Shown here piece by piece: positions 1,990-39,810 of a stretch of DNA of 40,856 bases. Source of the DNA: a virus (lineage: Duplodnaviria > Heunggongvirae > Uroviricota > Caudoviricetes); the IMG/VR virus record IMGVR_UViG_2561511241_000004, positions 1 to 40,856 of that record. One strand, 5' to 3'. A model generated the notes under the pieces. It saw nothing but the letters and a program-made list of their open reading frames with translations. It had not been told where the DNA came from and did not search any database. The first letter of the stretch is position 1. Each line of letters starts with the position of its first letter. Position numbers and translations under genes: made by a program.

Positions 1990-3675
1990 TTAAAAATCAG
2001 CCTGACTCGGGATCAGTTTTTGCCAGATAGCTGAAACGTATTTTGCCTGGTAACGAGCGTCATCAAGTGCATTATGGCGCTCACCTTCGAATGGAATAGC
2101 CGTTCTGGCATCGAAGTCTATGGCTTTCCCCAGCTCAACGATTGTGCGTACATCGCGATCGTTGTAGTAACGCCACGGGCAGGGGATCCCCTGCCGTTCG
2201 TATGAACGGCGCAAAATCGTGTTGTCGAAGTTGGCTCCATTTCCCCAAACCTGAACAAAAAATTCACCGGAGTTTTCGTCGATAAATTCCCGCAATTGTA
2301 ACAGTGCATCATCTAACGGGATTTCATCGGTCATAATGGCAGATTGCGCTTCGCGTGATTGCTTAAGCCACCATTTAATGGTGTCCCGATCAATGACTCC
2401 GCCAGCAGTTTCCAGATCGATAGTCTTACTAAATTCCGGTCCCATATCTCCGGTTTGCGGATCGAAAAATATTGCACCTATTGAGATGATCGGGGCATCA
2501 GGATTTTTTCCCATGGTTTCAAGGTCGATCATTAGATGGTCACACGTCCTGCTGGTGGATGTGATTTCTTGATGACCGTTCACCTTAATTGGGTGATCTG
2601 CCGTCTCGCCAGTTTCATTATCGCTATCGTGATGCTGATTGCCGCCAGTGTTCTCCTTGTGTGGATGTTCAGCGCCTTCCATTTCCTCCGGATCATCTTC
2701 CTGAACTTCAACCTGATACTCTTCATCGAATGTTTCCTGGTATGTAGCGTCGCCCATCACCGCGCCACAATCAGGGCAGTTGCCGCCGCCGGTCTGACCG
2801 CAGGCGGTGCAGACTTTTTCCACTTCCTGTTGCACTACTGGTTCAGGTAGTTTCGTTTCTGGCTCGTTTTGTTGCGTATTTTGGCTGTTTTGTTCCGCTT
2901 TCTGGTCGTTCTGTTCCGTTTCTTGCTGGTTCTGGTTCACAGAATCGCGGGTTTCAATCCCCTTCACCCATTTCGGATCATTCGGATCGCTAATCCCTGC
3001 AACAAATTCACCACGTGATACTGCAAGCAGTTCATCGGCGTCAGGCTGGCTGATATTGGCTGCCTGCATAATTTTGTTTACTTCGTCAGCGGTAACTTTT
3101 ACCGGCCCTGGTTGTGCGGTCGTGTCAGATGCACCAGTATTTTGTTGTGAACCTGAGTATGTACCGTTTTTGCGGGCGAAATATTCTTCTTTCGTGATTT
3201 CAGTAGCCCCTGCAGCCAGTGCCTTATCCAGACCAGAAAGTTTGTTTGCGCGACCGTATTTTTCGCTATCCTTGTCGGTGAAGAGGAAGTAGAACGGCCC
3301 TTCACGCTCTACAGATGGTTCGACTTCCACTTTGCATTCGGTTTTTTCGTTGTCCGGAATTGCCGTTTCCACTGCATCAGTTTCTGGTACTGGCGACGAG
3401 AGAGTATCAGTTGCGCTCTGATTTCTTCCTTCATCTTCAAACACGCCCTTTGTAGTCAGGTATTCAGTAATGTATTTGTTCAGTGCCACAGGGTCTTTGT
3501 GAATGTCGATCGGACGTTCACGGACAAGGCCAAAAATAGTCTGGCGGTCGTAGCGAAGGGCATCAGGCTGTTTGCGCATTGATGCCGAGATACGCTTCCA
3601 GTCTTCGCGGTCGTTGTCGATAACTTCTTTTTTTGCCCAGCGATGGATGCTGCCGTCAATGTTTCCGGCATCCAC
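1990..3675 (-). CDS. exonuclease, C-terminal portion with DnaQ-like DEDDh 3'-5' exonuclease domain; out of frame with the upstream portion
   Basis: C-terminal region carries Exo-like motifs (LMIDLETMG, WGNGANFD, HNALDDA); frame opens only about 30 nt upstream of its GTG, and the preceding ORF runs into junk sequence here. Confidence 0.6.
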   Translation of the reverse strand: MDAGNIDGSIHRWAKKEVIDNDREDWKRISASMRKQPDALRYDRQTIFGLVRERPIDIHKDPVALNKYITEYLTTKGVFEDEGRNQSATDTLSSPVPETDAVETAIPDNEKTECKVEVEPSVEREGPFYFLFTDKDSEKYGRANKLSGLDKALAAGATEITKEEYFARKNGTYSGSQQNTGASDTTAQPGPVKVTADEVNKIMQAANISQPDADELLAVSRGEFVAGISDPNDPKWVKGIETRDSVNQNQQETEQNDQKAEQNSQNTQQNEPETKLPEPVVQQEVEKVCTACGQTGGGNCPDCGAVMGDATYQETFDEEYQVEVQEDDPEEMEGAEHPHKENTGGNQHHDSDNETGETADHPIKVNGHQEITSTSRTCDHLMIDLETMGKNPDAPIISIGAIFFDPQTGDMGPEFSKTIDLETAGGVIDRDTIKWWLKQSREAQSAIMTDEIPLDDALLQLREFIDENSGEFFVQVWGNGANFDNTILRRSYERQGIPCPWRYYNDRDVRTIVELGKAIDFDARTAIPFEGERHNALDDARYQAKYVSAIWQKLIPSQADF

Positions 3676-4460
3676 ATCACAGGCCAGAGAGCGTAGGCCA
3701 GTTCGTCATCCAGTGTTTTCCATGTCTGCTTGTATTCGCGATGAGTGGCAGCAATGACCGGGCTGATTTTTCCTGTTGAATTTTCAGTGTTCTGTTGATT
3801 GGCTCTGGCGCGGGCGAGATCAACAACAGACGTGTATTTTCCGGTTTCCTTGCGTTCACCTTCGCGACGTTTTTTCCAGATGCGCATCTCTGCCTGAATT
3901 TCGGGCCATTTAGCACCAGGAATACATTTATGCTTAACCCACCCAATGGCGTGCAACTTAAGCTCCGGATACATGGCGTTAACTTCTGGCATTTTCATCA
4001 ACGCTTCAACGATATGTCCGTCGAATGTTGCCATGTCTTCCTGCAACAATTCCTGTGCGCTAATAACCATATCAACGGTTATGTTTTCACATGTGTCGAA
4101 CTTAACCATGACAGCGTTCTGTACTTCAGGGGCCAGCTTGTCAAAAGTGACGTTCATCGGATCGGATTCAGTCTCAACCGGGACAAAAGAAGCAGACTCC
4201 TCATCCCAGCGGTTTTCCTGCATATATTCAGCATCCCATGAATCGAGGGCAGGGCAGGGTATGCCAGGTTTATCCTCGCAGACAATAAATTTATAAGCGC
4301 AGTCCTGAGCAGCCGGATAATGTTCCAGGAATTGCCAGTGAAATTTTGCTCGAGCACGGCGTTCGTCGCCAGCTTCAATGGCTGTGGCTACAGCCACAGC
4401 GCCTTCTTCCCTTGTTGCCAGTTCGTCAGGAATAGCGGCGCAAATAAAGACTTTACTCAT
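3480..4460 (-). CDS. exonuclease N-terminal portion (YdfE-like), separated from the C-terminal portion by a frame change near 3670-3706
   Basis: Protein-like translation up to about 3680, then low-complexity junk to the stop at 3480; ATG at 4460 preferred. Confidence 0.5.
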   Translation of the reverse strand: MSKVFICAAIPDELATREEGAVAVATAIEAGDERRARAKFHWQFLEHYPAAQDCAYKFIVCEDKPGIPCPALDSWDAEYMQENRWDEESASFVPVETESDPMNVTFDKLAPEVQNAVMVKFDTCENITVDMVISAQELLQEDMATFDGHIVEALMKMPEVNAMYPELKLHAIGWVKHKCIPGAKWPEIQAEMRIWKKRREGERKETGKYTSVVDLARARANQQNTENSTGKISPVIAATHREYKQTWKTLDDELAYALWPVMWMPETLTAASIAGQKKKLSTTTAKTGSVSRHQCANSLMPFATTARLFLALSVNVRSTFTKTLWH

Positions 4461-4552
4461 TTGTTTTAACCTCATGACAGATTTAAGGATGAACAAATCC
4501 CTGCCATTGCTGGCATATAAGAATGAAACCGGATATTTATTACGGAACTGTT

Positions 4553-4744
4553 TTAAAGACCTGCCGGGATTTCGATATTATCCTGGTGAATAACTTTATC
4601 GACCGGGTAACAGTTACCGGGAATTTTCTGTTCGGTTGCTGCAGTCATACACTCCTGCATTGTCCTGTGAACACTGACTGCAATATCAACTGGCTCTCCG
4701 GAAACAAGAAAAACTGTCAGAACAAGCACAAATGCTGAATTCAT
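4553..4744 (-). CDS. ydfD: YdfD-like small membrane (lysis) protein, 63 aa
   Basis: 63 aa with N-terminal hydrophobic segment; start overlaps the dicB stop (ATGA); position matches Qin ydfD downstream of dicB. Confidence 0.6.
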   Translation of the reverse strand: MNSAFVLVLTVFLVSGEPVDIAVSVHRTMQECMTAATEQKIPGNCYPVDKVIHQDNIEIPAGL

Positions 4745-4929
4745 TGTGCACATCCTTTTGGCATCAGACGTAAACGAGCCAGCATTGAAACAATGCATAT
4801 TTTATTTAATAGCTCCCGTTCTTGTTTTCTCTTGTTAATGGCATCTTCAGTAAATACAGGGTTACTGATAGTGACACCAATTTCAAAACAACCTTCAGAC
4901 GTATTAACGTTTGGTAATAACGTTTTCAT
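4741..4929 (-). CDS. dicB: cell division inhibitor DicB (62 aa)
   Basis: Translation MKTLLPNVNTSEGCFEIGVTISNPVFTEDAINKRKQERELLNKICIVSMLARLRLMPKGCAQ matches my recollection of DicB; GAGGA RBS. Confidence 0.8.
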   Translation of the reverse strand: MKTLLPNVNTSEGCFEIGVTISNPVFTEDAINKRKQERELLNKICIVSMLARLRLMPKGCAQ

Positions 4930-5104
4930 TATCGCGTCCTCAACAATGAATTTTGTGATGCAGTGCCTGGTGCCTCCAGGTGACGTTAACCAGTTAACAA
5001 TTAACGCCGGATACAGAGAATCCACCCATAACACTGTTTTTGGTTTTAACTGTTCCGCGTGCGCTTAGCCGCATTCACCGCATCACAAAATTCACTTTAA
5101 AAAA

Positions 5105-5158
5105 GGGCGGCAGAGCAGTCACGGAGTAAAAACTGATACCGCCAAACGTCACCAGAAA
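5105..5158 (-). ncRNA. dicF: DicF small RNA (ftsZ-targeting, Hfq-dependent in K-12)
   Basis: Minus-strand sequence UUUCUGGUGACGUUUGGCGGUAUCAGUUUUUACUCCGUGACUGCUCUGCCGCCC followed by a U-run; matches recollected DicF; sits just upstream of dicB as in Qin. Confidence 0.75.
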
Positions 5159-5491
5159 ATTGATAACAGAGGGCGTTGCAGCGGGGTTGTCACTTAAGCG
5201 TATGGTCAACCTGACAACCCGGTGTCCTCAACGGGGAAGGAATAACCCCGCCATACTTACCGCCGCGCCATTTCGCGGGTTGCCACAACCGGAAGCGCAC
5301 GGTCGACGAAAATTTAACGACAGGCTATCTATGAACCAGCTACCTCGCCGTGCGCTTTCGCGTTATGGTCTGACTTTTCAGGGAAATATCCTTTCAGTAA
5401 ACTGTCAGTGCCGGATGTTCACCCGTGTCCGGCGCACGCACTCCACCTCACCCGTGGAGAACTCCTTAATTACCAACCCTCAGGAGGGTGA

Positions 5492-5725
5492 ATGTTAAAA
5501 TCAACTCTTATTGCTAAATGCCTTTATCAAAATCGCATGGTAAGCAGCATTTCAATAGGCGAGTCTGCAGTTAAAAGTATTTTCGAAGAGTACTTCCCCG
5601 GGCATGATTTTAATAAATGGAATACCAAATTACCGCCAGCAGTTTCAACGCGTATTCTGAAAGCAACTGAAAGAGCAAGTACAATTCGCGTTAACTATTT
5701 CATTAAAGATTTGTGGGATCTTTGA
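5492..5725 (+). CDS. hypothetical protein (77 aa), convergent with the early-left operon
   Basis: Strong AGGAGG SD 4 nt before the ATG; AT-rich; overlaps the 3' end of the 135-aa minus-strand gene by 23 nt. Confidence 0.3.
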   Translation: MLKSTLIAKCLYQNRMVSSISIGESAVKSIFEEYFPGHDFNKWNTKLPPAVSTRILKATERASTIRVNYFIKDLWDL

Positions 5726-6110
5726 TATCCACAGAGCCTAAAGTATGTGCATATGGATGTGCTATTGTGCGCCCTCGCAGATTTGCATCATTTTCTAAAT
5801 TCACTGAACGAAACAGGGCATCAACAAGGCTCTGTACAATGCAAAGGCAATCGAAGACTGTCGCTGTTTCTGTTTTGATTGATGAAAGAACATGGCCATT
5901 CACGCAAACAGAAATTACCCGTTCATTAACATCGCTTTCCTGCTTTTGATTATCAGAACCATATAGCCCAGAAAAAGCATTGCGCACATTACGAACCATA
6001 TTATCGATGGTTTCTTTTTTGGTGTATGCCGGGTCAATTTTCACCAGACTATCACCGAGAGTCGTTGCAGCAATTGTCTGGATTTCTTTTGGTAAATCTT
6101 TAAATTCCAT
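5703..6110 (-). CDS. hypothetical protein (135 aa) in an AT-rich island between ydfC and the dicF precursor
   Basis: Good ORF with a GAGG RBS, immediately downstream of ydfC; no family recognised. Confidence 0.55.
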   Translation of the reverse strand: MEFKDLPKEIQTIAATTLGDSLVKIDPAYTKKETIDNMVRNVRNAFSGLYGSDNQKQESDVNERVISVCVNGHVLSSIKTETATVFDCLCIVQSLVDALFRSVNLENDANLRGRTIAHPYAHTLGSVDIKDPTNL

Positions 6111-6132
6111 TATTAGCCTCGTTGGTTAGCTA

Positions 6133-6351
6133 TTAACGTGGGTATGTAATCATTCTGGCAATGCTTAATGCCGCTGCTTTTTCCAGATTGGTGATATCCT
6201 GCTCCAGAGAGAACAGATTTTCAGCCTGCTTAGCCCTGGCTTCATTAGCCCATTTCAGATCCTGCGCTGCATTAATTTTCTGGCGCATCCACTCATAAAG
6301 TTCATCATCGGTATAGTCTGGCGCGATGATGACAGGTTCTCGTTTCTGCAT
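6133..6351 (-). CDS. ydfC: YdfC-like protein (72 aa)
   Basis: 72 aa from the ATG at 6351 with an AAGGAG RBS; length and position match Qin ydfC upstream of dicF. Confidence 0.6.
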   Translation of the reverse strand: MQKREPVIIAPDYTDDELYEWMRQKINAAQDLKWANEARAKQAENLFSLEQDITNLEKAAALSIARMITYPR

Positions 6352-6443
6352 GTCAGCTCCTTGTGGTTCGCATTGCCTGCTTTTAACCACGTCAGGCGAG
6401 GTGGTATCCTCTGAGGGGTCTGTTACTCGAGAGGAAATTGGTT

Positions 6444-6644
6444 ATGAATACAATCAAGTTTTCTTGCCCAGAATGTGGTGGCGAAGTCTTTGACACATCC
6501 TTTAAGCCGCAGGGCTCTGACAGTTTCGCGGGAGCCATCTGCAAAAATTGTGGTCACCTTGTAACTGAAGATGAGTCCTCGCAGTTCGATGACGAAATCG
6601 TTGACAATATCTTCGGTGCACTCACCAGAGACTTTCTGAAATAA
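6444..6644 (+). CDS. small zinc-ribbon protein (CPECGG ... CKNCGH), 66 aa
   Basis: Two CxxC motifs 24 aa apart; GAGG RBS 9 nt upstream; entirely antisense to an alternative 118-aa minus-strand ORF (6423..6779). Confidence 0.4.
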   Translation: MNTIKFSCPECGGEVFDTSFKPQGSDSFAGAICKNCGHLVTEDESSQFDDEIVDNIFGALTRDFLK

Positions 6645-6968
6645 AGACGCATACCGCTTAGTTACCGCTCTGATAACTCTTACCTGTCCGGCAATGGCGC
6701 TGATGTCAATATAAAGCGCCATTGCTGCTTCTTTGCCGATCCCGTGATGCCTTCCATTCTGATGTTTGACTTCGCCCACTGAGAAATCCTCTGTTTCCCC
6801 TTAACGCCGGGGTAGCGGAACAAAAACCTGCTGCATAGTTATTAAAGTTGGACCCTGCCGTCATGTTCTTACGCCTCAGGCTGGCTACTTAACCCCTGAC
6901 CACTGCCTGGTAACTCGAAGTATTGCCCTGCATTCTGTGGGGCGGGGTGGGTTGGTATGAAAAGAAGG

Positions 6969-7007
6969 ATACCCATAGGTATTTAAAAAGTAAATACCCA
7001 TGGGTAA
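6969..7007. promoter_or_regulatory. OL-like operator pair (ATACC-N4-GGTAT and ATACC-N4-GGTAA) with probable leftward early promoter
   Basis: Two 14-bp palindromes centred about 25 bp apart, sharing half-sites with the three OR sites. Confidence 0.5.
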
Positions 7008-7048
7008 CTTTTTGCGGTGTCTTAACTGGTGACTAGTTGTTTGGTGAG

Positions 7049-7468
7049 CTATGATGCGTTTTGTGCTTTCTTTTTACGGATTTCTTCGTAGATCATATTG
7101 TAATACTGTTTTTTCTCTTCAAGAGTTTTTAATAAGTTATCCGCTTCACTTTCTGGCAGTTCGTCTAAGAGATCTAAAAAAATACGTTGTCGTGGCGTTA
7201 GAACCCTTGTTTCATAACTGGAGGCTGTGTTCGTTGATGATGAAACGATACCATCCATCCATCCCCGGGGTAACCCAAAGGACTCTTCGATAATCTCCAC
7301 CATATCATCAGCGATCCGTTTTTTTCCCTTTTTCCCCTCTGGGTACAACATTCTTGATACATAAGAAGGCTCGCGCCCGATCTTTCTGGCCACGTTAACC
7401 GCTTTACCATCGCATTTCTCATCACGAATTTTGATGAGTTGCTGTCGTCTAAATTCATATTTGTCCAT
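7049..7468 (-). CDS. prophage repressor (HTH DNA-binding protein, cI-like role)
   Basis: Divergent from the cro-like gene across an operator-rich spacer; start at 7468 (MDKYEF...) has no SD and sits 7 nt after a TATTAT -10, consistent with a leaderless transcript; the ORF track extends to 7522. Confidence 0.65.
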   Translation of the reverse strand: MDKYEFRRQQLIKIRDEKCDGKAVNVARKIGREPSYVSRMLYPEGKKGKKRIADDMVEIIEESFGLPRGWMDGIVSSSTNTASSYETRVLTPRQRIFLDLLDELPESEADNLLKTLEEKKQYYNMIYEEIRKKKAQNAS

Positions 7469-7487
7469 AGGTAAATAATAGATGCGA

Positions 7488-7540
7488 TTACCGCAAGGTA
7501 AACAACCTGCGGGTATTGACATTTGTTTACCTGTGGGTAT
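7488..7540. promoter_or_regulatory. OR-like tripartite operator with rightward promoter (TTGACA -35 at 7516-7521)
   Basis: Three TTACC-N4-GGTA(A/T) sites at 7488-7501, 7504-7517 and 7527-7540 overlapping the -35/-10 of the cro-like gene. Confidence 0.5.
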
Positions 7541-7568
7541 TCTTTACTGTGTTTACTAAGGAGTAGCT

Positions 7569-7850
7569 ATGGAAGAATTAAGAATATTTCTCAATTCTCT
7601 TTCGTCAGATGAACAGCGTATGTTTGCATGCGAGTGTGGTACCAGCATCGGTTATCTAAGAAAGGCATTGAGTAAAGGTCAAGTGTTAGGGGCATCGTTA
7701 TGTGTCCTTATTGAGCGAGCCAGTAATGGTGAAGTTACACGTCAGCAACTAAGGCCTTTTGATTGGATGAATATTTGGCCCGAGCTGGAAGATACCAAAA
7801 CGTTAACACAACCACTTTCTAGGAGCTTGATTCATGAAAATCAAGCATGA
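7569..7850 (+). CDS. Cro-like / YdaS-family HTH regulator
   Basis: 93 aa, first rightward gene after the operators; AAGGAG RBS; HTH-like segment GTSIGYLRKALSKGQ. Confidence 0.6.
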   Translation: MEELRIFLNSLSSDEQRMFACECGTSIGYLRKALSKGQVLGASLCVLIERASNGEVTRQQLRPFDWMNIWPELEDTKTLTQPLSRSLIHENQA

Positions 7851-8259
7851 ACACATCCGCATGGCGATGAATGCCTGGGCGCATCCGGACGGTGAAAAAG
7901 TTCCGGCAGCTGAAATAACCAGGGCTTATTTTGAACTGGGTATGACGTTCCCAGAACTGTATGACGACAGCCATCCGGAAGCCCTGGCTCGCAATACCCA
8001 GAAAATTTTCCGCTGGATAGAGAAAGACACCCCTGATGCAGTTGAAAAAATTCAGGCGTTGTTACCAGCGATCGAAAAGGCAATGCCACCTTTGCTGGTG
8101 GCCAGAATGCGCAGCCACAGTTCAGCTTATTTTCGGGAGCTGGTGGAGACGCGGGAGCGACTGGTGAGAGACGCTGATGATTTTGTCGCAGTGGCAATCG
8201 CCGGTTTCAATCAGATGAACCGTGGTGGCCCGGCAGGAAATGCTGTGGCAGTACATTGA
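7834..8259 (+). CDS. YdaT-like protein (Rac prophage family)
   Basis: 141 aa beginning MKIKHEH and ending ...VH, as recollected for Rac YdaT; overlaps the end of the cro-like gene. Confidence 0.55.
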   Translation: MKIKHEHIRMAMNAWAHPDGEKVPAAEITRAYFELGMTFPELYDDSHPEALARNTQKIFRWIEKDTPDAVEKIQALLPAIEKAMPPLLVARMRSHSSAYFRELVETRERLVRDADDFVAVAIAGFNQMNRGGPAGNAVAVH

Positions 8260-11420: not shown

Positions 11421-11673
11421 TAAAAATGATGAGCCGAGACTGTATTTACGGGACGCTGAGAGAATACCATAGAAAAGCTTATCTAACTTAAGTAGAATTG
11501 CTGCGGGTGCTTGAGGCTATCTGCCTCAGGCATGAACACCAAAGGCAGATAGAGAAAAGCCCCAGTTAACATTACGCGTCCTGCAAGACGCTTAACATTA
11601 ATCTGAGGCTCAATCTATGAACGGCAAATCTAGGTTAGCCTCTTACGTGCCGAAAGGCAAGGAGAAGCAGGCT

Positions 11674-11829
11674 ATGAAGCAGCAAAAGGCGATGTTAATC
11701 GCCCTGATCGTCATCTGTTTAACCGTCATTGTGACGGCACTGGTAACGAGGAAAGACCTCTGCGAGGTACGAATCCGAACCGGCCAGACGGGGGTCGCTG
11801 TCTTCACAGCTTACGAACCTGAGGAGTAA
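11674..11829 (+). CDS. hokD: Hok/Gef-family type I toxin (HokD/RelF-like, 51 aa)
   Basis: MKQQKAMLIALIVICLTVIVTALVTRKDLCEVRIRTGQTGVAVFTAYEPEE; AGGAGA RBS; in-frame upstream extension from 11617; mRNA 5'/3' complementary elements present. Confidence 0.8.
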   Translation: MKQQKAMLIALIVICLTVIVTALVTRKDLCEVRIRTGQTGVAVFTAYEPEE

Positions 11830-15243: not shown

Positions 15244-15319
15244 GGCCCTTTAGCTCAGTGGTGAGAGCGAGCGACTCATAATCGCCAGGTCGCTGGTTCA
15301 AATCCAGCAAGGGCCACCA
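15244..15319 (+). tRNA. tRNA with anticodon CAU (Ile2/Met type, ileX/ileZ-like)
   Basis: Clean cloverleaf: 7-bp acceptor stem, GCTC/GAGC D-stem, anticodon loop CUCAUAA, TTCAAAT T-loop, CCA end; very similar to E. coli ileX. Confidence 0.8.
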
Positions 15320-15320
15320 G

Positions 15321-15397
15321 CCGCCACTAGCTCATCAGGAAAGAACGTCAACCCTTTAAGTTGAGTGTGCGAGGTTCGAGTCCCCGGTGGCGGTCCA
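15321..15397 (+). tRNA. tRNA-like gene with unusual anticodon loop CCUUUAA (C at position 33); identity uncertain
   Basis: Perfect 7-bp acceptor stem, TCAAC/GTTGA anticodon stem, TTCGAGT T-loop, CCA end; mismatches in D- and T-stems. Confidence 0.5.
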
Positions 15398-15399
15398 GT

Positions 15400-15476
<77 letters not shown>

Positions 15477-15479
15477 TAT

Positions 15480-15554
<75 letters not shown>

Positions 15555-26517: not shown

Positions 26518-27975
26518 ATGAGTGTGGCGACATTACGTGAACTGATTATTAAAATCTCGGCAAATTCCCGGTCATTCCAGTCAGAGATCTCCCGGGCTTC
26601 GCGTATGGGGCAGGATTACTACCGTACCATGCAGAACGGAGGCCGGCAGTCCGCTGCTGCATCCCGTGAAATGCGGCGTGCACTGGCAGAAGTGACGGAT
26701 CAGATAAATACAGCTAAATCTTCGGCACTGAACATGGCTGGCGCATTTGCCGGTGCTTTTGCCACTGGACATCTTATATCTCTTGCGGATGAATGGAGTT
26801 CAGTAAATGCCCGTCTGAAGCAGGCCTCACAGTCCAGTGATGATTTTCAGGCATCACAGCGTGAATTAATGGCGATCAGCCAGAAAACGGGGACGGCGTT
26901 TTCTGATAACGCACGCCTTTTTGCCCGTTCTGCAGCTTCCATGCGGGAGTATGGTTACAGTTCTGAGGAAGTACTGAAAGTCACCGAGGCGATCTCCACG
27001 GGCCTGAATTTATCCGGTGCCAGTACAGCAGAAGCCAGTTCGGTGATCACGCAGTTCAGTCAGGCACTGGCGCAGGGAGTGCTGCGCGGTGAAGAGTTTA
27101 ACTCGGTGAATGAGAACGGCGATCGTGTTATTCGTGCGCTGGCTGCGGGAATGGGTGTTGCCCGTAAGGATCTGAAGGCCATGGCGGATAACGGAAAACT
27201 GACCACCGATAAGGTTGTTCCTGCACTGATTAGTCAGCTTGGGGCATTACGTGATGAATATGCGGCAATGCCTGATACGGTTTCATCCTCTGCAACCAAA
27301 GTTGAAAACGCCTTTATGGCCTGGGTTGGTGGTGCGAACGAGGCAAGCGGAGTGACGAAGACGCTCTCCGGTGTGCTGAATGGTATTGCAGGCAATATTG
27401 ACACCGTGGCAACCGCTGCCGGTGCTCTGGTTGCCGTCGGGGTAGCCCGATATTTTGGCAATATGGCGTCTTCTGCTGGATCTGCAACTGCCGGATTAAT
27501 TACTGCAGCCAGAAACGAAGTGGCTCTTGCGGAAGCGCAACTCCGGGGGACACAGATAGCAACAGCCAGGGCGCGTGCGGCGGTTTATCGTGCGCAACAG
27601 GCAGTTGTGGCTACCCGTGGTACAGAAAGGCAGGCAGCCGCAGAAGCGAAACTGGCTGCTGCCCAGGCATCACTTACCCGTAATATTGCGGCCAGAACAG
27701 CAGCACAGACAACGCTGAATACTGTCACGTCAGTGGGGAGCCGTTTGTTAAGTGGGGCACTGGGGCTGGTTGGGGGTGTGCCGGGGCTTGTCATGCTGGG
27801 AGCCGCGGCCTGGTACACGACTGTATCAGAATCAGGAGCAGGCCAGAGAATCTGCACGCCAGTATGCCGCAACAATCGACGAAATTCGCCAGAAAACCGT
27901 CGGCAATGTCGCTTCCTGAAGCGTCAGATAATGAGGAAAAGACGCGGCAGGCACTTGATGAGCAAAACAGGTTAA
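26518..27975 (+). CDS. tail tape measure protein, N-terminal fragment (credible to about 27835, then junk)
   Basis: Coiled-coil rich, ends with hydrophobic ...GGVPGLVMLGAAAWY; translation after about 27840 is Arg/Cys junk. Confidence 0.6.
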   Translation: MSVATLRELIIKISANSRSFQSEISRASRMGQDYYRTMQNGGRQSAAASREMRRALAEVTDQINTAKSSALNMAGAFAGAFATGHLISLADEWSSVNARLKQASQSSDDFQASQRELMAISQKTGTAFSDNARLFARSAASMREYGYSSEEVLKVTEAISTGLNLSGASTAEASSVITQFSQALAQGVLRGEEFNSVNENGDRVIRALAAGMGVARKDLKAMADNGKLTTDKVVPALISQLGALRDEYAAMPDTVSSSATKVENAFMAWVGGANEASGVTKTLSGVLNGIAGNIDTVATAAGALVAVGVARYFGNMASSAGSATAGLITAARNEVALAEAQLRGTQIATARARAAVYRAQQAVVATRGTERQAAAEAKLAAAQASLTRNIAARTAAQTTLNTVTSVGSRLLSGALGLVGGVPGLVMLGAAAWYTTVSESGAGQRICTPVCRNNRRNSPENRRQCRFLKRQIMRKRRGRHLMSKTG

Positions 27976-39009: not shown

Positions 39010-39226
39010 ATACAGTGTTAACACTTCTTCTGCAGGCGCTCATACGCACTCTGTATCGGGTACTGCTGCAAGCGCAGGTGCACACGCACATACTGTCGGT
39101 ATTGGTGCTCATACGCACTCCGTTGCGATTGGTTCACATGGACATACCATCACCGTTAACGCTGCTGGTAACGCGGAAAACACCGTCAAAAACATCGCAT
39201 TTAACTATATTGTGAGGCTTGCGTAA
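38954..39226 (+). CDS. Stf C-terminal segment in an alternate frame (canonical ...[13 protein letters not shown] end)
   Basis: Repeats the [17 protein letters not shown] motif and ends exactly where tfa starts. Confidence 0.5.
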
Positions 39227-39810
39227 TGGCATTCAGAATGAGTGAACAACCACGGACCATAAAAATTTATAATCTGCTGGCCGGAACTAATGAATTTATT
39301 GGTGAAGGTGACGCATATATTCCGCCTCATACAGGTCTGCCAGCAAACAGTACCGATATTGCACCACCAGATATTCCTGCTGGCTTTGTGGCTGTTTTCA
39401 ACAGTGATGAGGCATCGTGGCATCTCGTTGAAGACCATCGGGGTAAAACGGTTTATGACGTAGCGTCAGGGGACGAGTTATTTATTTCTGAACTCGGTCC
39501 GTTACCGGAAAATGTTACCTGGTTATCGCCGGAAGGGGAGTTTCAGAAGTGGAACGGCACAGCCTGGGTGAAGGATACGGAAGCAGAAAAACTGTTCCGG
39601 ATCCGGGAGGCGGAAGAAACAAAAAACAACCTGATGCAGGTAGCCAGTGAGCATATTGCGCCGCTTCAGGATGCTGCAGATCTGGAAATTGCAACGGAGG
39701 AAGAAACCTCATTGCTGGAAGCCTGGAAAAAGTATCGGGTGTTGCTGAACCGTGTTGATACATCAACTGCACCTGATATTGAGTGGCCTACGAACCCTGT
39801 CAGGGAGTAA
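39226..39810 (+). CDS. tfa: tail fibre assembly protein (Tfa)
   Basis: 194 aa, [18 protein letters not shown]... Tfa family; immediately follows stf. Confidence 0.85.
39656..39810 (+). repeat. direct repeat copy 1 (tfa 3' region, about 85% identical to 40697..40856)
   Basis: Aligned by eye: gcgcc(g/a)ct(t/g)caggatgctg(c/t)agatctggaaat(t/c)gcaacggaggaagaaa... Confidence 0.6.

Follow-up and report, generated by a model that had tools for sequence, protein, structure and literature searches.

The dicF-dicB-ydfD module in the early-left operon of a complete-looking lambdoid prophage

In Escherichia coli K-12, the Qin prophage carries the dicBF operon (ydfA-ydfB-ydfC-dicF-dicB-ydfD-ydfE) under DicA and DicC, and DicA represses the promoter dicBp (PMC10448788). 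In this study, a dicF-dicB-ydfD module was analysed in a viral DNA sequence of 40,856 nt (IMG/VR record IMGVR_UViG_2561511241_000004, positions 1 to 40,856), and this whole stretch is referred to as the window. The window is a complete-looking lambdoid prophage. The module, on the minus strand at 4553 to 5158, is real, correctly identified and already known; it is near-ubiquitous and lies in a common genomic context. It is in our reading, with a probability of about 90%, the standard dicBF-type part of a lambdoid early-left (pL-like) operon.

The K-12 products have been studied in some detail. The 5′ end of the small RNA (sRNA) DicF is formed by RNase E from a polycistronic precursor, and cleavage by RNase III gives a 72-nt form (PMC5069750; PMC10448788); Rho-independent termination gives the 53-nt DicF (PMC5069750). 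DicF represses ftsZ translation in an Hfq-dependent manner and causes filamentation on overproduction; base pairing involves the 3′/loop region for the ftsZ ribosome-binding site and the 5′ region for xylR and pykA (PMC5069750). DicB together with MinC blocks division, and a block of ManXYZ by DicB also gives protection from lambda (PMC6832061; PMC10448788). YdfD of K-12, identical in sequence to the protein of the window, lyses cells by binding and inhibiting IspG (PMC8835842). The occurrence of dicBF in different prophages has already been published (PMC5069750 section 13, Fig 9; PMC10448788), and four DicF orthologues from different prophages of O157:H7 are expressed according to work cited in PMC10448788.

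The same dicF-dicB-ydfD-exonuclease block, at fixed spacing and with varied immunity regions, is carried by other prophages and phages, including those of O157:H7 strains Sakai and EDL933, the phages mEp460, Tritos, HannyBb and PhiR42_1, and prophages of pig enterotoxigenic E. coli (ETEC) at potC; they differ from the window in that the loop of DicF with five T residues (T5) occurs only in the latter. The kilS-kilR pair of the Rac prophage is likewise an early-left sRNA gene followed by a small division-inhibitor gene. Positions 4945 to 5144 of the window, comprising the 3′ part of DicF and the dicF-dicB spacer, were 77.7% identical to the kilR-kilS stretch, overlapping the 3′ part of kilS; dicF/dicB and kilS/kilR therefore look like positional homologues, although the inhibitor here is DicB, not KilR, and the repressor is unrelated to RacR. 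In lambda, kil encodes a host cell-division inhibitor in the repressor-controlled early-left (pL) operon and is, by description only, a functional analogue of the module; to our knowledge, lambda has no DicF-type sRNA.

Identity and distribution of the module

The features of the module and its upstream part are as follows.

4553-4744, minus strand: ydfD, 63 aa, DUF1482 (Pfam PF07358)
4741-4929, minus strand: dicB, 62 aa (Pfam PF05358, NCBIfam NF049927)
5099-5104, minus strand: T-run of the DicF terminator, T6 here and T5 in K-12 and most other copies
5105-5158, minus strand: dicF sRNA, 54 nt (Rfam RF00039 match, base-by-base comparison with K-12, and fold)
5159-5478, minus strand: 5′ leader of dicF, 98-99% identical to K-12
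6133-6351, minus strand: ydfC, 72 aa, with 70 of 72 residues identical to K-12 YdfC and 96.7% nucleotide identity (phrog_1744)

An Rfam scan of the whole window matched RF00039 at 5105-5157 on the minus strand (69.9 bits with a gathering score of 48 bits; E = 1.5e-13), covering model positions 1 to 52 of 52. By the K-12 annotation, DicF of the window is 54 nt long (5105-5158) and that of K-12 53 nt, the difference being one inserted T. Folding with RNAfold displayed a single-stranded 5′ arm followed by a GC-rich terminator-like hairpin and a U-run. DicB matched PF05358 over positions 1 to 62 of 62 (E = 1.9e-40; 136.8 bits, cut-off 27) and NF049927 with 132.8 bits (cut-off 100), and all 62 residues were identical to those of K-12 DicB (100%). 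YdfD matched PF07358 (E = 3.9e-26; 91.1 bits, cut-off 25) and was also 100% identical to its K-12 counterpart (63/63). A GAGGA Shine-Dalgarno sequence precedes dicB, and the dicB stop and ydfD start are joined by an ATGA overlap, because of which translational coupling of the two genes is expected.

At the DNA level, the block from 5478 to 3694, which runs from the dicF leader into the first part of ydfE, showed 99.2% identity to the Qin region of K-12 MG1655; the differences in these 1785 nt are 12 substitutions and 2 one-base indels. The matches to DicF, DicB and YdfD are far beyond chance; chance or low-complexity similarity as their source is refuted by the E values given above and by the DNA identity over 1785 nt. 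The original prediction had placed a 54-nt DicF, a 62-aa DicB and a 63-aa YdfD in this order on the minus strand, and the coordinates, lengths and order all proved correct in the Rfam, Pfam and K-12 comparisons. Alignment to K-12, the test of homology set beforehand, gave identical proteins and an sRNA with one inserted base, showing that these are homologues. In a relaxed Rfam scan of 4300-7700, DicF was the only hit apart from a sub-threshold match to STnc100 (35.7 bits, threshold 47) at 4910-5115, over the dicF-dicB spacer.

The likeness to Qin extends to the order of genes, to the dicB/ydfD coupling and to the repressor gene, which lies upstream and is oriented like the operon, with operators between them, as for dicA and dicBp. 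The prediction that ydfC lies upstream was right as to its presence, but this gene does not adjoin dicF. In K-12, ydfC directly meets the dicF leader, whereas a 634-bp insert (5479-6112), a two-gene cassette, lies there in the window. Comparison with the Qin region showed further that ydfA and ydfB are missing from the window, their position being filled by an antisense zinc-ribbon gene. The repressor is not DicA, and the right arm of the immunity region contains Cro-like and YdaT genes in place of DicC, as judged from these genes and not from a direct comparison of DicC with the window. Finally, K-12 ydfE is cut by IS2, whereas the window keeps the exonuclease gene, xis and int downstream.

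A search of 5426 complete E. coli genomes detected the 1.1-kb dicF-dicB-ydfD block in 4752 of them; the number of places per genome had a median of 2 and reached 10. It was also found in the viable lambdoid phages Tritos (in which DicF, DicB and YdfD are annotated), mEp460, HannyBb and PhiR42_1. To examine the context, 125 loci holding the dicF core were surveyed; an exact dicF match decided their inclusion, and they do not represent a random sample. Both dicB and ydfD were present at fixed spacing in 105 of the 111 loci with enough downstream sequence. Among the 91 loci with 3 kb of upstream sequence, YdaT-family genes occurred in 62, a DicA-type repressor in 26 and the repressor of the window in 15; the last was linked to dicF in 17 of all 125 loci, and its region was present in 36 E. 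coli genomes. The repressor region and ydfC were 99.8% identical in other E. coli genomes, likewise beside dicB. Separately, the record of Aeromonas phage AP1 (MT713136.1, a 254-kb jumbo phage) was observed to end in 249 nt with 98.8% identity to E. coli dicB/ydfD, which looks like contamination or a chimeric assembly.

The module had been described as lying inside an otherwise different prophage, combined with another type of immunity region and a lambda-type tail. The prophage is indeed different, as only 4.9 of its 40.9 kb (12%) match K-12 Qin DNA (the dicF block, ydfC, hokD, ydfU and stfQ/tfaQ), though this is the usual lambdoid mosaicism. The tail is also of the lambda type: H, M, L, K, I, J, Lom, Stf (side tail fibre) and Tfa are present in lambda order with about 95-96% DNA identity to phages so annotated, the tape-measure gene being frameshifted. 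The implied oddity of the combination was not borne out, since YdaT-type immunity was the commonest dicF context in the 91 loci and dicBF has been published from varied prophages. For dicF, DicA/DicC immunity as in K-12 Qin is the less common setting. The module appears as a mobile block of lambdoid early-left operons, mostly beside YdaT-type immunity and presumably controlled by the local repressor, and its presence here has little significance beyond correct annotation.

Immunity region and leader of the leftward operon

Starting at 6351 and continuing through int, all operon genes are encoded on the minus strand. The features upstream of ydfC are as follows.

6423-6779, minus strand: 118-aa open reading frame (ORF), phrog_21318, with a GTG start behind a conserved ydfA-type ribosome-binding region
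6438-6644, plus strand: CxxC zinc-ribbon gene of the ECs_2282 family, antisense to the operon (NCBIfam NF047912, 57.2 bits, cut-off 37)
6794-6959, minus strand: leader of the leftward operon, matching the Rac leader and with its last 28 nt shared with K-12
6969-7007, strand not assigned: operator-like pair, ATACCCATAGGTA and ATACCCATGGGTA, at 6969 and 6994, 25 bp apart and 47-72 nt past the repressor stop
7049-7468, minus strand: prophage repressor candidate, 139 aa with the RefSeq start codon (phrog_5736)
7505-7541, strand not assigned: operator-like pair, reverse complements ATACCCGCAGGT and ATACCCACAGGT, at 7505 and 7529, 24 bp apart, in the repressor/cro intergenic region
7569-7850, plus strand: Cro-like regulator, 93 aa, divergent from the repressor (phrog_35)
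7834-8259, plus strand: YdaT/CII-like gene following the Cro-like gene (Pfam YdaT_toxin, phrog_163)

The repressor candidate matched PHROG 5736, annotated as a transcriptional regulator, with E = 4.4e-70. Its C-terminal 46 residues were 33% identical to the DicA C-terminus (E = 1e-7), and it scored 23.9 bits with the NCBIfam DicA model, far under the cut-off of 101. A RacR-like repressor was also considered and rejected, as BLASTP with K-12 RacR gave no similarity (best E = 2.6). The Cro-like protein matched phrog_35 (E = 4.8e-23); a 28-aa stretch was 54% identical to K-12 YdaS, and the Pfam YdaS_toxin score of 25.8 bits was below the cut-off of 30. The next protein belongs to the YdaT family (YdaT_toxin, 39.9 bits, cut-off 21) and was 33% identical to Rac YdaT over its full length (E = 7e-16). 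The label of a Rac-like YdaS/YdaT immunity region thus holds in part: it is apt at the family level for the right arm, given the YdaT-family protein, but the repressor is not RacR-like, the Cro-like protein is below the Pfam YdaS cut-off and YdaT shares only 33% identity.

A repeat search around the repressor gene gave four copies of a near-palindromic motif. The exact sequence ATACCCNNNGGT has 4 copies in the 40.9-kb window, all of them flanking this gene. In 17 other loci with the same repressor (at least 90% identity), the motif was confined to the same offsets, −72 and −48 upstream and +47 and +72 downstream, within stretches of up to 14 kb. Paired sites on either side of the repressor gene resemble OL/OR of lambda, and their placement resembles that of the DicA operators at dicBp and dicCp (PMC10448788). 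The four sites are likely the OL/OR operators of the uncharacterised phrog_5736 repressor, judging from their recurrence and position. A 16-bp terminator called by a generic scan at 7006-6970 was rejected, since its arms are two of the operator copies that recur beside the repressor gene. The left operator-like pair overlaps a candidate leftward promoter (TTTACT-17 nt-TATCCT). By its anatomy, control of the dicF-dicB-ydfD operon by the prophage's own repressor is well supported, and we infer it on that ground.

Downstream of this promoter, the leader (6796-6959) was 86% identical over 164 nt to the Rac leader upstream of ydaG, and a leader of this kind is kept across prophages with differing repressors. 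The sole K-12 remnant from the ydfA side is a stretch of 28 nt at 6794-6821, which in K-12 lies just upstream of the ydfA ribosome-binding site; this 28-nt core, common with Qin, holds a CCCC...GGGG hairpin. A search of the leader for a nut-like or other structured element was negative, folding being no better than that of shuffled sequences (z = +0.89). The ORFs at 6423-6779 (minus strand) and 6438-6644 (plus strand) overlap completely on opposite strands, and the zinc-ribbon ORF is favoured because of its curated family match; RefSeq gives the same annotation in a 99.8% identical region of strain Ecol_881.

Variation in DicF and weighing of the readings

The loop of DicF in the window has T5 at 5128, compared with T4 in K-12 and in a 99.6% identical prophage of a pig strain, and the terminator tail is T6, compared with T5 in the same two sequences. 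In the survey, the tail was CTTTTTAAAGTG in 95 of 125 dicF loci and the extra loop base was present in none of the 125. A search of the complete E. coli genomes with an 81-nt query matched 3959 genomes, none with at least 99% identity. When a pattern allowing either form was used, all 5 matches in GTDB representatives were of the 40-nt T4 form, as were all of the matches listed from IMG/VR; the exact T5 sequence was not found among metagenome contigs. The predicted hairpin is the same for both forms (ViennaRNA; −15.8 kcal/mol here, −15.9 kcal/mol in K-12), and the 5′ arm, which pairs with xylR and pykA, is the same as in K-12. Complementarity to ftsZ is predicted to be kept: pairing with the K-12 ftsZ leader gave −13.7 kcal/mol locally and −29.4 kcal/mol overall, compared with −12.9 and −28.6 kcal/mol for K-12 DicF, and the extra U is predicted to pair with an A of the ftsZ leader that is mismatched in the K-12 duplex. 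The extra loop U is thus predicted to be harmless.

That the three genes are DicF, DicB and YdfD, that they lie in this order with dicB and ydfD coupled, that the leader is conserved and that operator-like sites are present is directly established. By analogy to the K-12 case, from which processing, targets and repression are carried over, the operon would work as follows. In a lysogen, the 139-aa repressor would bind the paired operators on both sides of its own gene and keep the leftward promoter off. Derepression would produce a long leftward transcript through ydfC, the 135-aa gene of the cassette, the dicF leader, dicF, dicB, ydfD, the exonuclease gene, xis and int. RNase E would cut the 5′ end of DicF out of this transcript, and the 3′ end would come from either RNase III or the hairpin and U-run of the DicF terminator. 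In the presence of Hfq, the loop region of DicF would pair with the ftsZ ribosome-binding site and the 5′ arm with xylR and pykA. DicB, made by read-through past the DicF terminator, would recruit MinC and block the Z-ring, and would also close the ManXYZ route of lambda DNA entry; for the protein of the window, MinC-dependent inhibition is expected from its identity to K-12 DicB. YdfD, coupled to DicB translation, would lyse the cell by inhibiting IspG. The module looks like a functional toxic module for division inhibition, lysis and phage exclusion; its derepression should, as in K-12, turn host cells into filaments and kill them.

Several points weigh against this account. Expression of the module in this prophage is proposed from the sequence, and the repressor differs from DicA, so that operon control is argued from the placement of the operators. 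The candidate leftward promoter has only 8 of 12 consensus matches and was missed by a generic promoter scan. The leftward transcript must cross a convergent 77-aa gene of the cassette, which is not in K-12. DicF with both the T5 loop and the T6 tail has turned up in no other sequence searched, which makes its activity a prediction. Lastly, at least two genes are broken: one G is lost at about 3681 (GG −1), splitting the exonuclease gene into two ORFs, and the tape-measure gene (about 1075 aa) carries four +1 insertions within 330 nt (27821, 27898, 28074 and 28150) relative to a 96% identical phage. These breaks may be due either to decay of the prophage or to sequence error.

Both causes were considered. 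If the module is present and the extra loop U and tail T are homopolymer errors of sequencing or assembly, the true DicF is of the K-12 type; the chance of this falls a little short of even. Both differences are +1 changes in T runs, neither was in any other copy searched, and the same sequence has the GG −1 in the exonuclease gene and the cluster of four +1 changes in the tape measure. One-base indels also build up in decaying prophages, however; the indel-to-substitution ratios of 2:12 and 5:132 are within the range of pseudogenes, and the insertion at 27821 is outside any homopolymer. The other cause would make the module a decaying remnant of a defective prophage, with DicF, the operon or both no longer expressed or functional. 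The two frameshifted genes, the private DicF variant and the loss of ydfA/ydfB fit such decay, which we nevertheless regard as distinctly improbable: DicB and YdfD are intact and identical to active K-12 proteins, DicF keeps its hairpin and ftsZ complementarity in silico, operators are present, and full-length ORFs remain for repressor, integrase, excisionase, replication, lysis, head and the remaining tail. Moreover, K-12 Qin is far more decayed, yet its dicBF operon still works (PMC10448788).

Another view concerns the purpose of the module rather than its integrity, namely that selection in the lysogen has acted mainly on defence against other phages, with DicB and MinC blocking DNA entry that depends on ManYZ, and not on division arrest while the prophage itself grows lytically. 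Transient induction of dicBF shields K-12 from lambda through DicB, MinC and ManYZ (PMC6832061), about 1% of K-12 cells have been reported to have the promoter spontaneously on (PMC10448788), and about 88% of E. coli genomes retain the toxic module, frequently as several copies. Its location in a repressed early-left operon and its carriage by viable phages fit a lytic role like that of lambda kil, and we consider protection as the main role rather unlikely; the two roles can coexist, and nothing in the window separates them. The standard dicBF-type reading is retained as the one that best describes the locus.

The 634-bp cassette and the remaining prophage genes

The cassette, rather than the DicF/DicB/YdfD module, is the least ordinary feature of the locus. 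Its composition is as follows.

5479-6112, strand not assigned: 634-bp cassette with two genes, not in K-12
5492-5725, plus strand: 77-aa ORF, antisense to the early-left transcript
5703-6110, minus strand: 135-aa ORF, convergent with the 77-aa ORF

The 3′ ends of the two ORFs overlap by 23 bp. The cassette was found in 676 of the 5426 E. coli genomes, O157:H7 included. Full-length 77-aa homologues with 55-72% identity to the 77-aa protein were found in Klebsiella, Serratia, Dickeya, Xenorhabdus, Yersinia, Morganella and Salmonella, and this conservation marks the ORF as a real gene. In all six places analysed in Serratia and Klebsiella/Raoultella, the homologue overlaps an opposite-strand gene of 77-79 aa tail-to-tail by exactly 23 bp, and in most of the six this partner gene directly follows a repressor gene. 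The partner was 36-43% identical to residues 58-135 of the 135-aa ORF (E between about 1e-15 and 1e-17); the first 55 residues of the latter form a domain that has been shuffled separately. The convergent gene pair recurs in prophages of E. coli, Klebsiella and Serratia.

Neither cassette protein had a match in Pfam, NCBIfam or PADLOC. The AlphaFold model of the 77-aa protein was of high confidence, with a predicted local distance difference test score (pLDDT) of 96.4; in fold searches with this model, no match was obtained in PDB (best E = 5.2) and BFVD gave only one uncharacterised phage protein. The model of the 135-aa protein (pLDDT 46.6) was too low in confidence for a fold search. An antisense gene inside an early-left operon resembles sieB of P22 and lambda. 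By this analogy, and speculatively, the 77-aa gene could be an exclusion or defence gene expressed in the lysogen and silenced by convergent early-left transcription, with its partner providing self-immunity, or it could modulate the amount of precursor reaching dicF. Taken jointly with the lesser idea that the private extra U of DicF is real and retunes ftsZ pairing, this proposal is improbable.

The order of genes in the window is int and xis; the early-left operon; the immunity region; a replisome organiser; hok/sok; DUF968, RusA and Q; four tRNAs; lysis genes; an HK97-type head; and the lambda-type tail. The split gene in the early-left operon is listed here.

1990-4460, minus strand: ydfE-type exonuclease gene, 823 aa, with an Rv2179c-like 3′-5′ exoribonuclease domain, split into two ORFs

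Pig ETEC prophages inserted next to potC are the closest relatives; their identity to the first 25 kb of the window is 93.5% at 89% coverage, and the exact mosaic is absent from the collections, because no record exceeds these values.

Three other loci of the window were observed. An Rfam match to IS009 (225 bits) at 39569-39767 lies inside the tail-fibre assembly gene (39226-39810), and this family was probably built on coding sequence, so that the match would not mark an RNA gene of its own. The type I toxin-antitoxin locus hok/sok is at 11505-11679 (Rfam sok, 111.7 bits), and the adjoining 258 nt share 97.7% identity with the hokD region of Qin. The tRNA genes, located at 15244-15554 downstream of Q, are Met-CAT, Lys-TTT, Thr-TGT and Gly-TCC, and a related pig ETEC prophage has Ile and Arg tRNAs instead.

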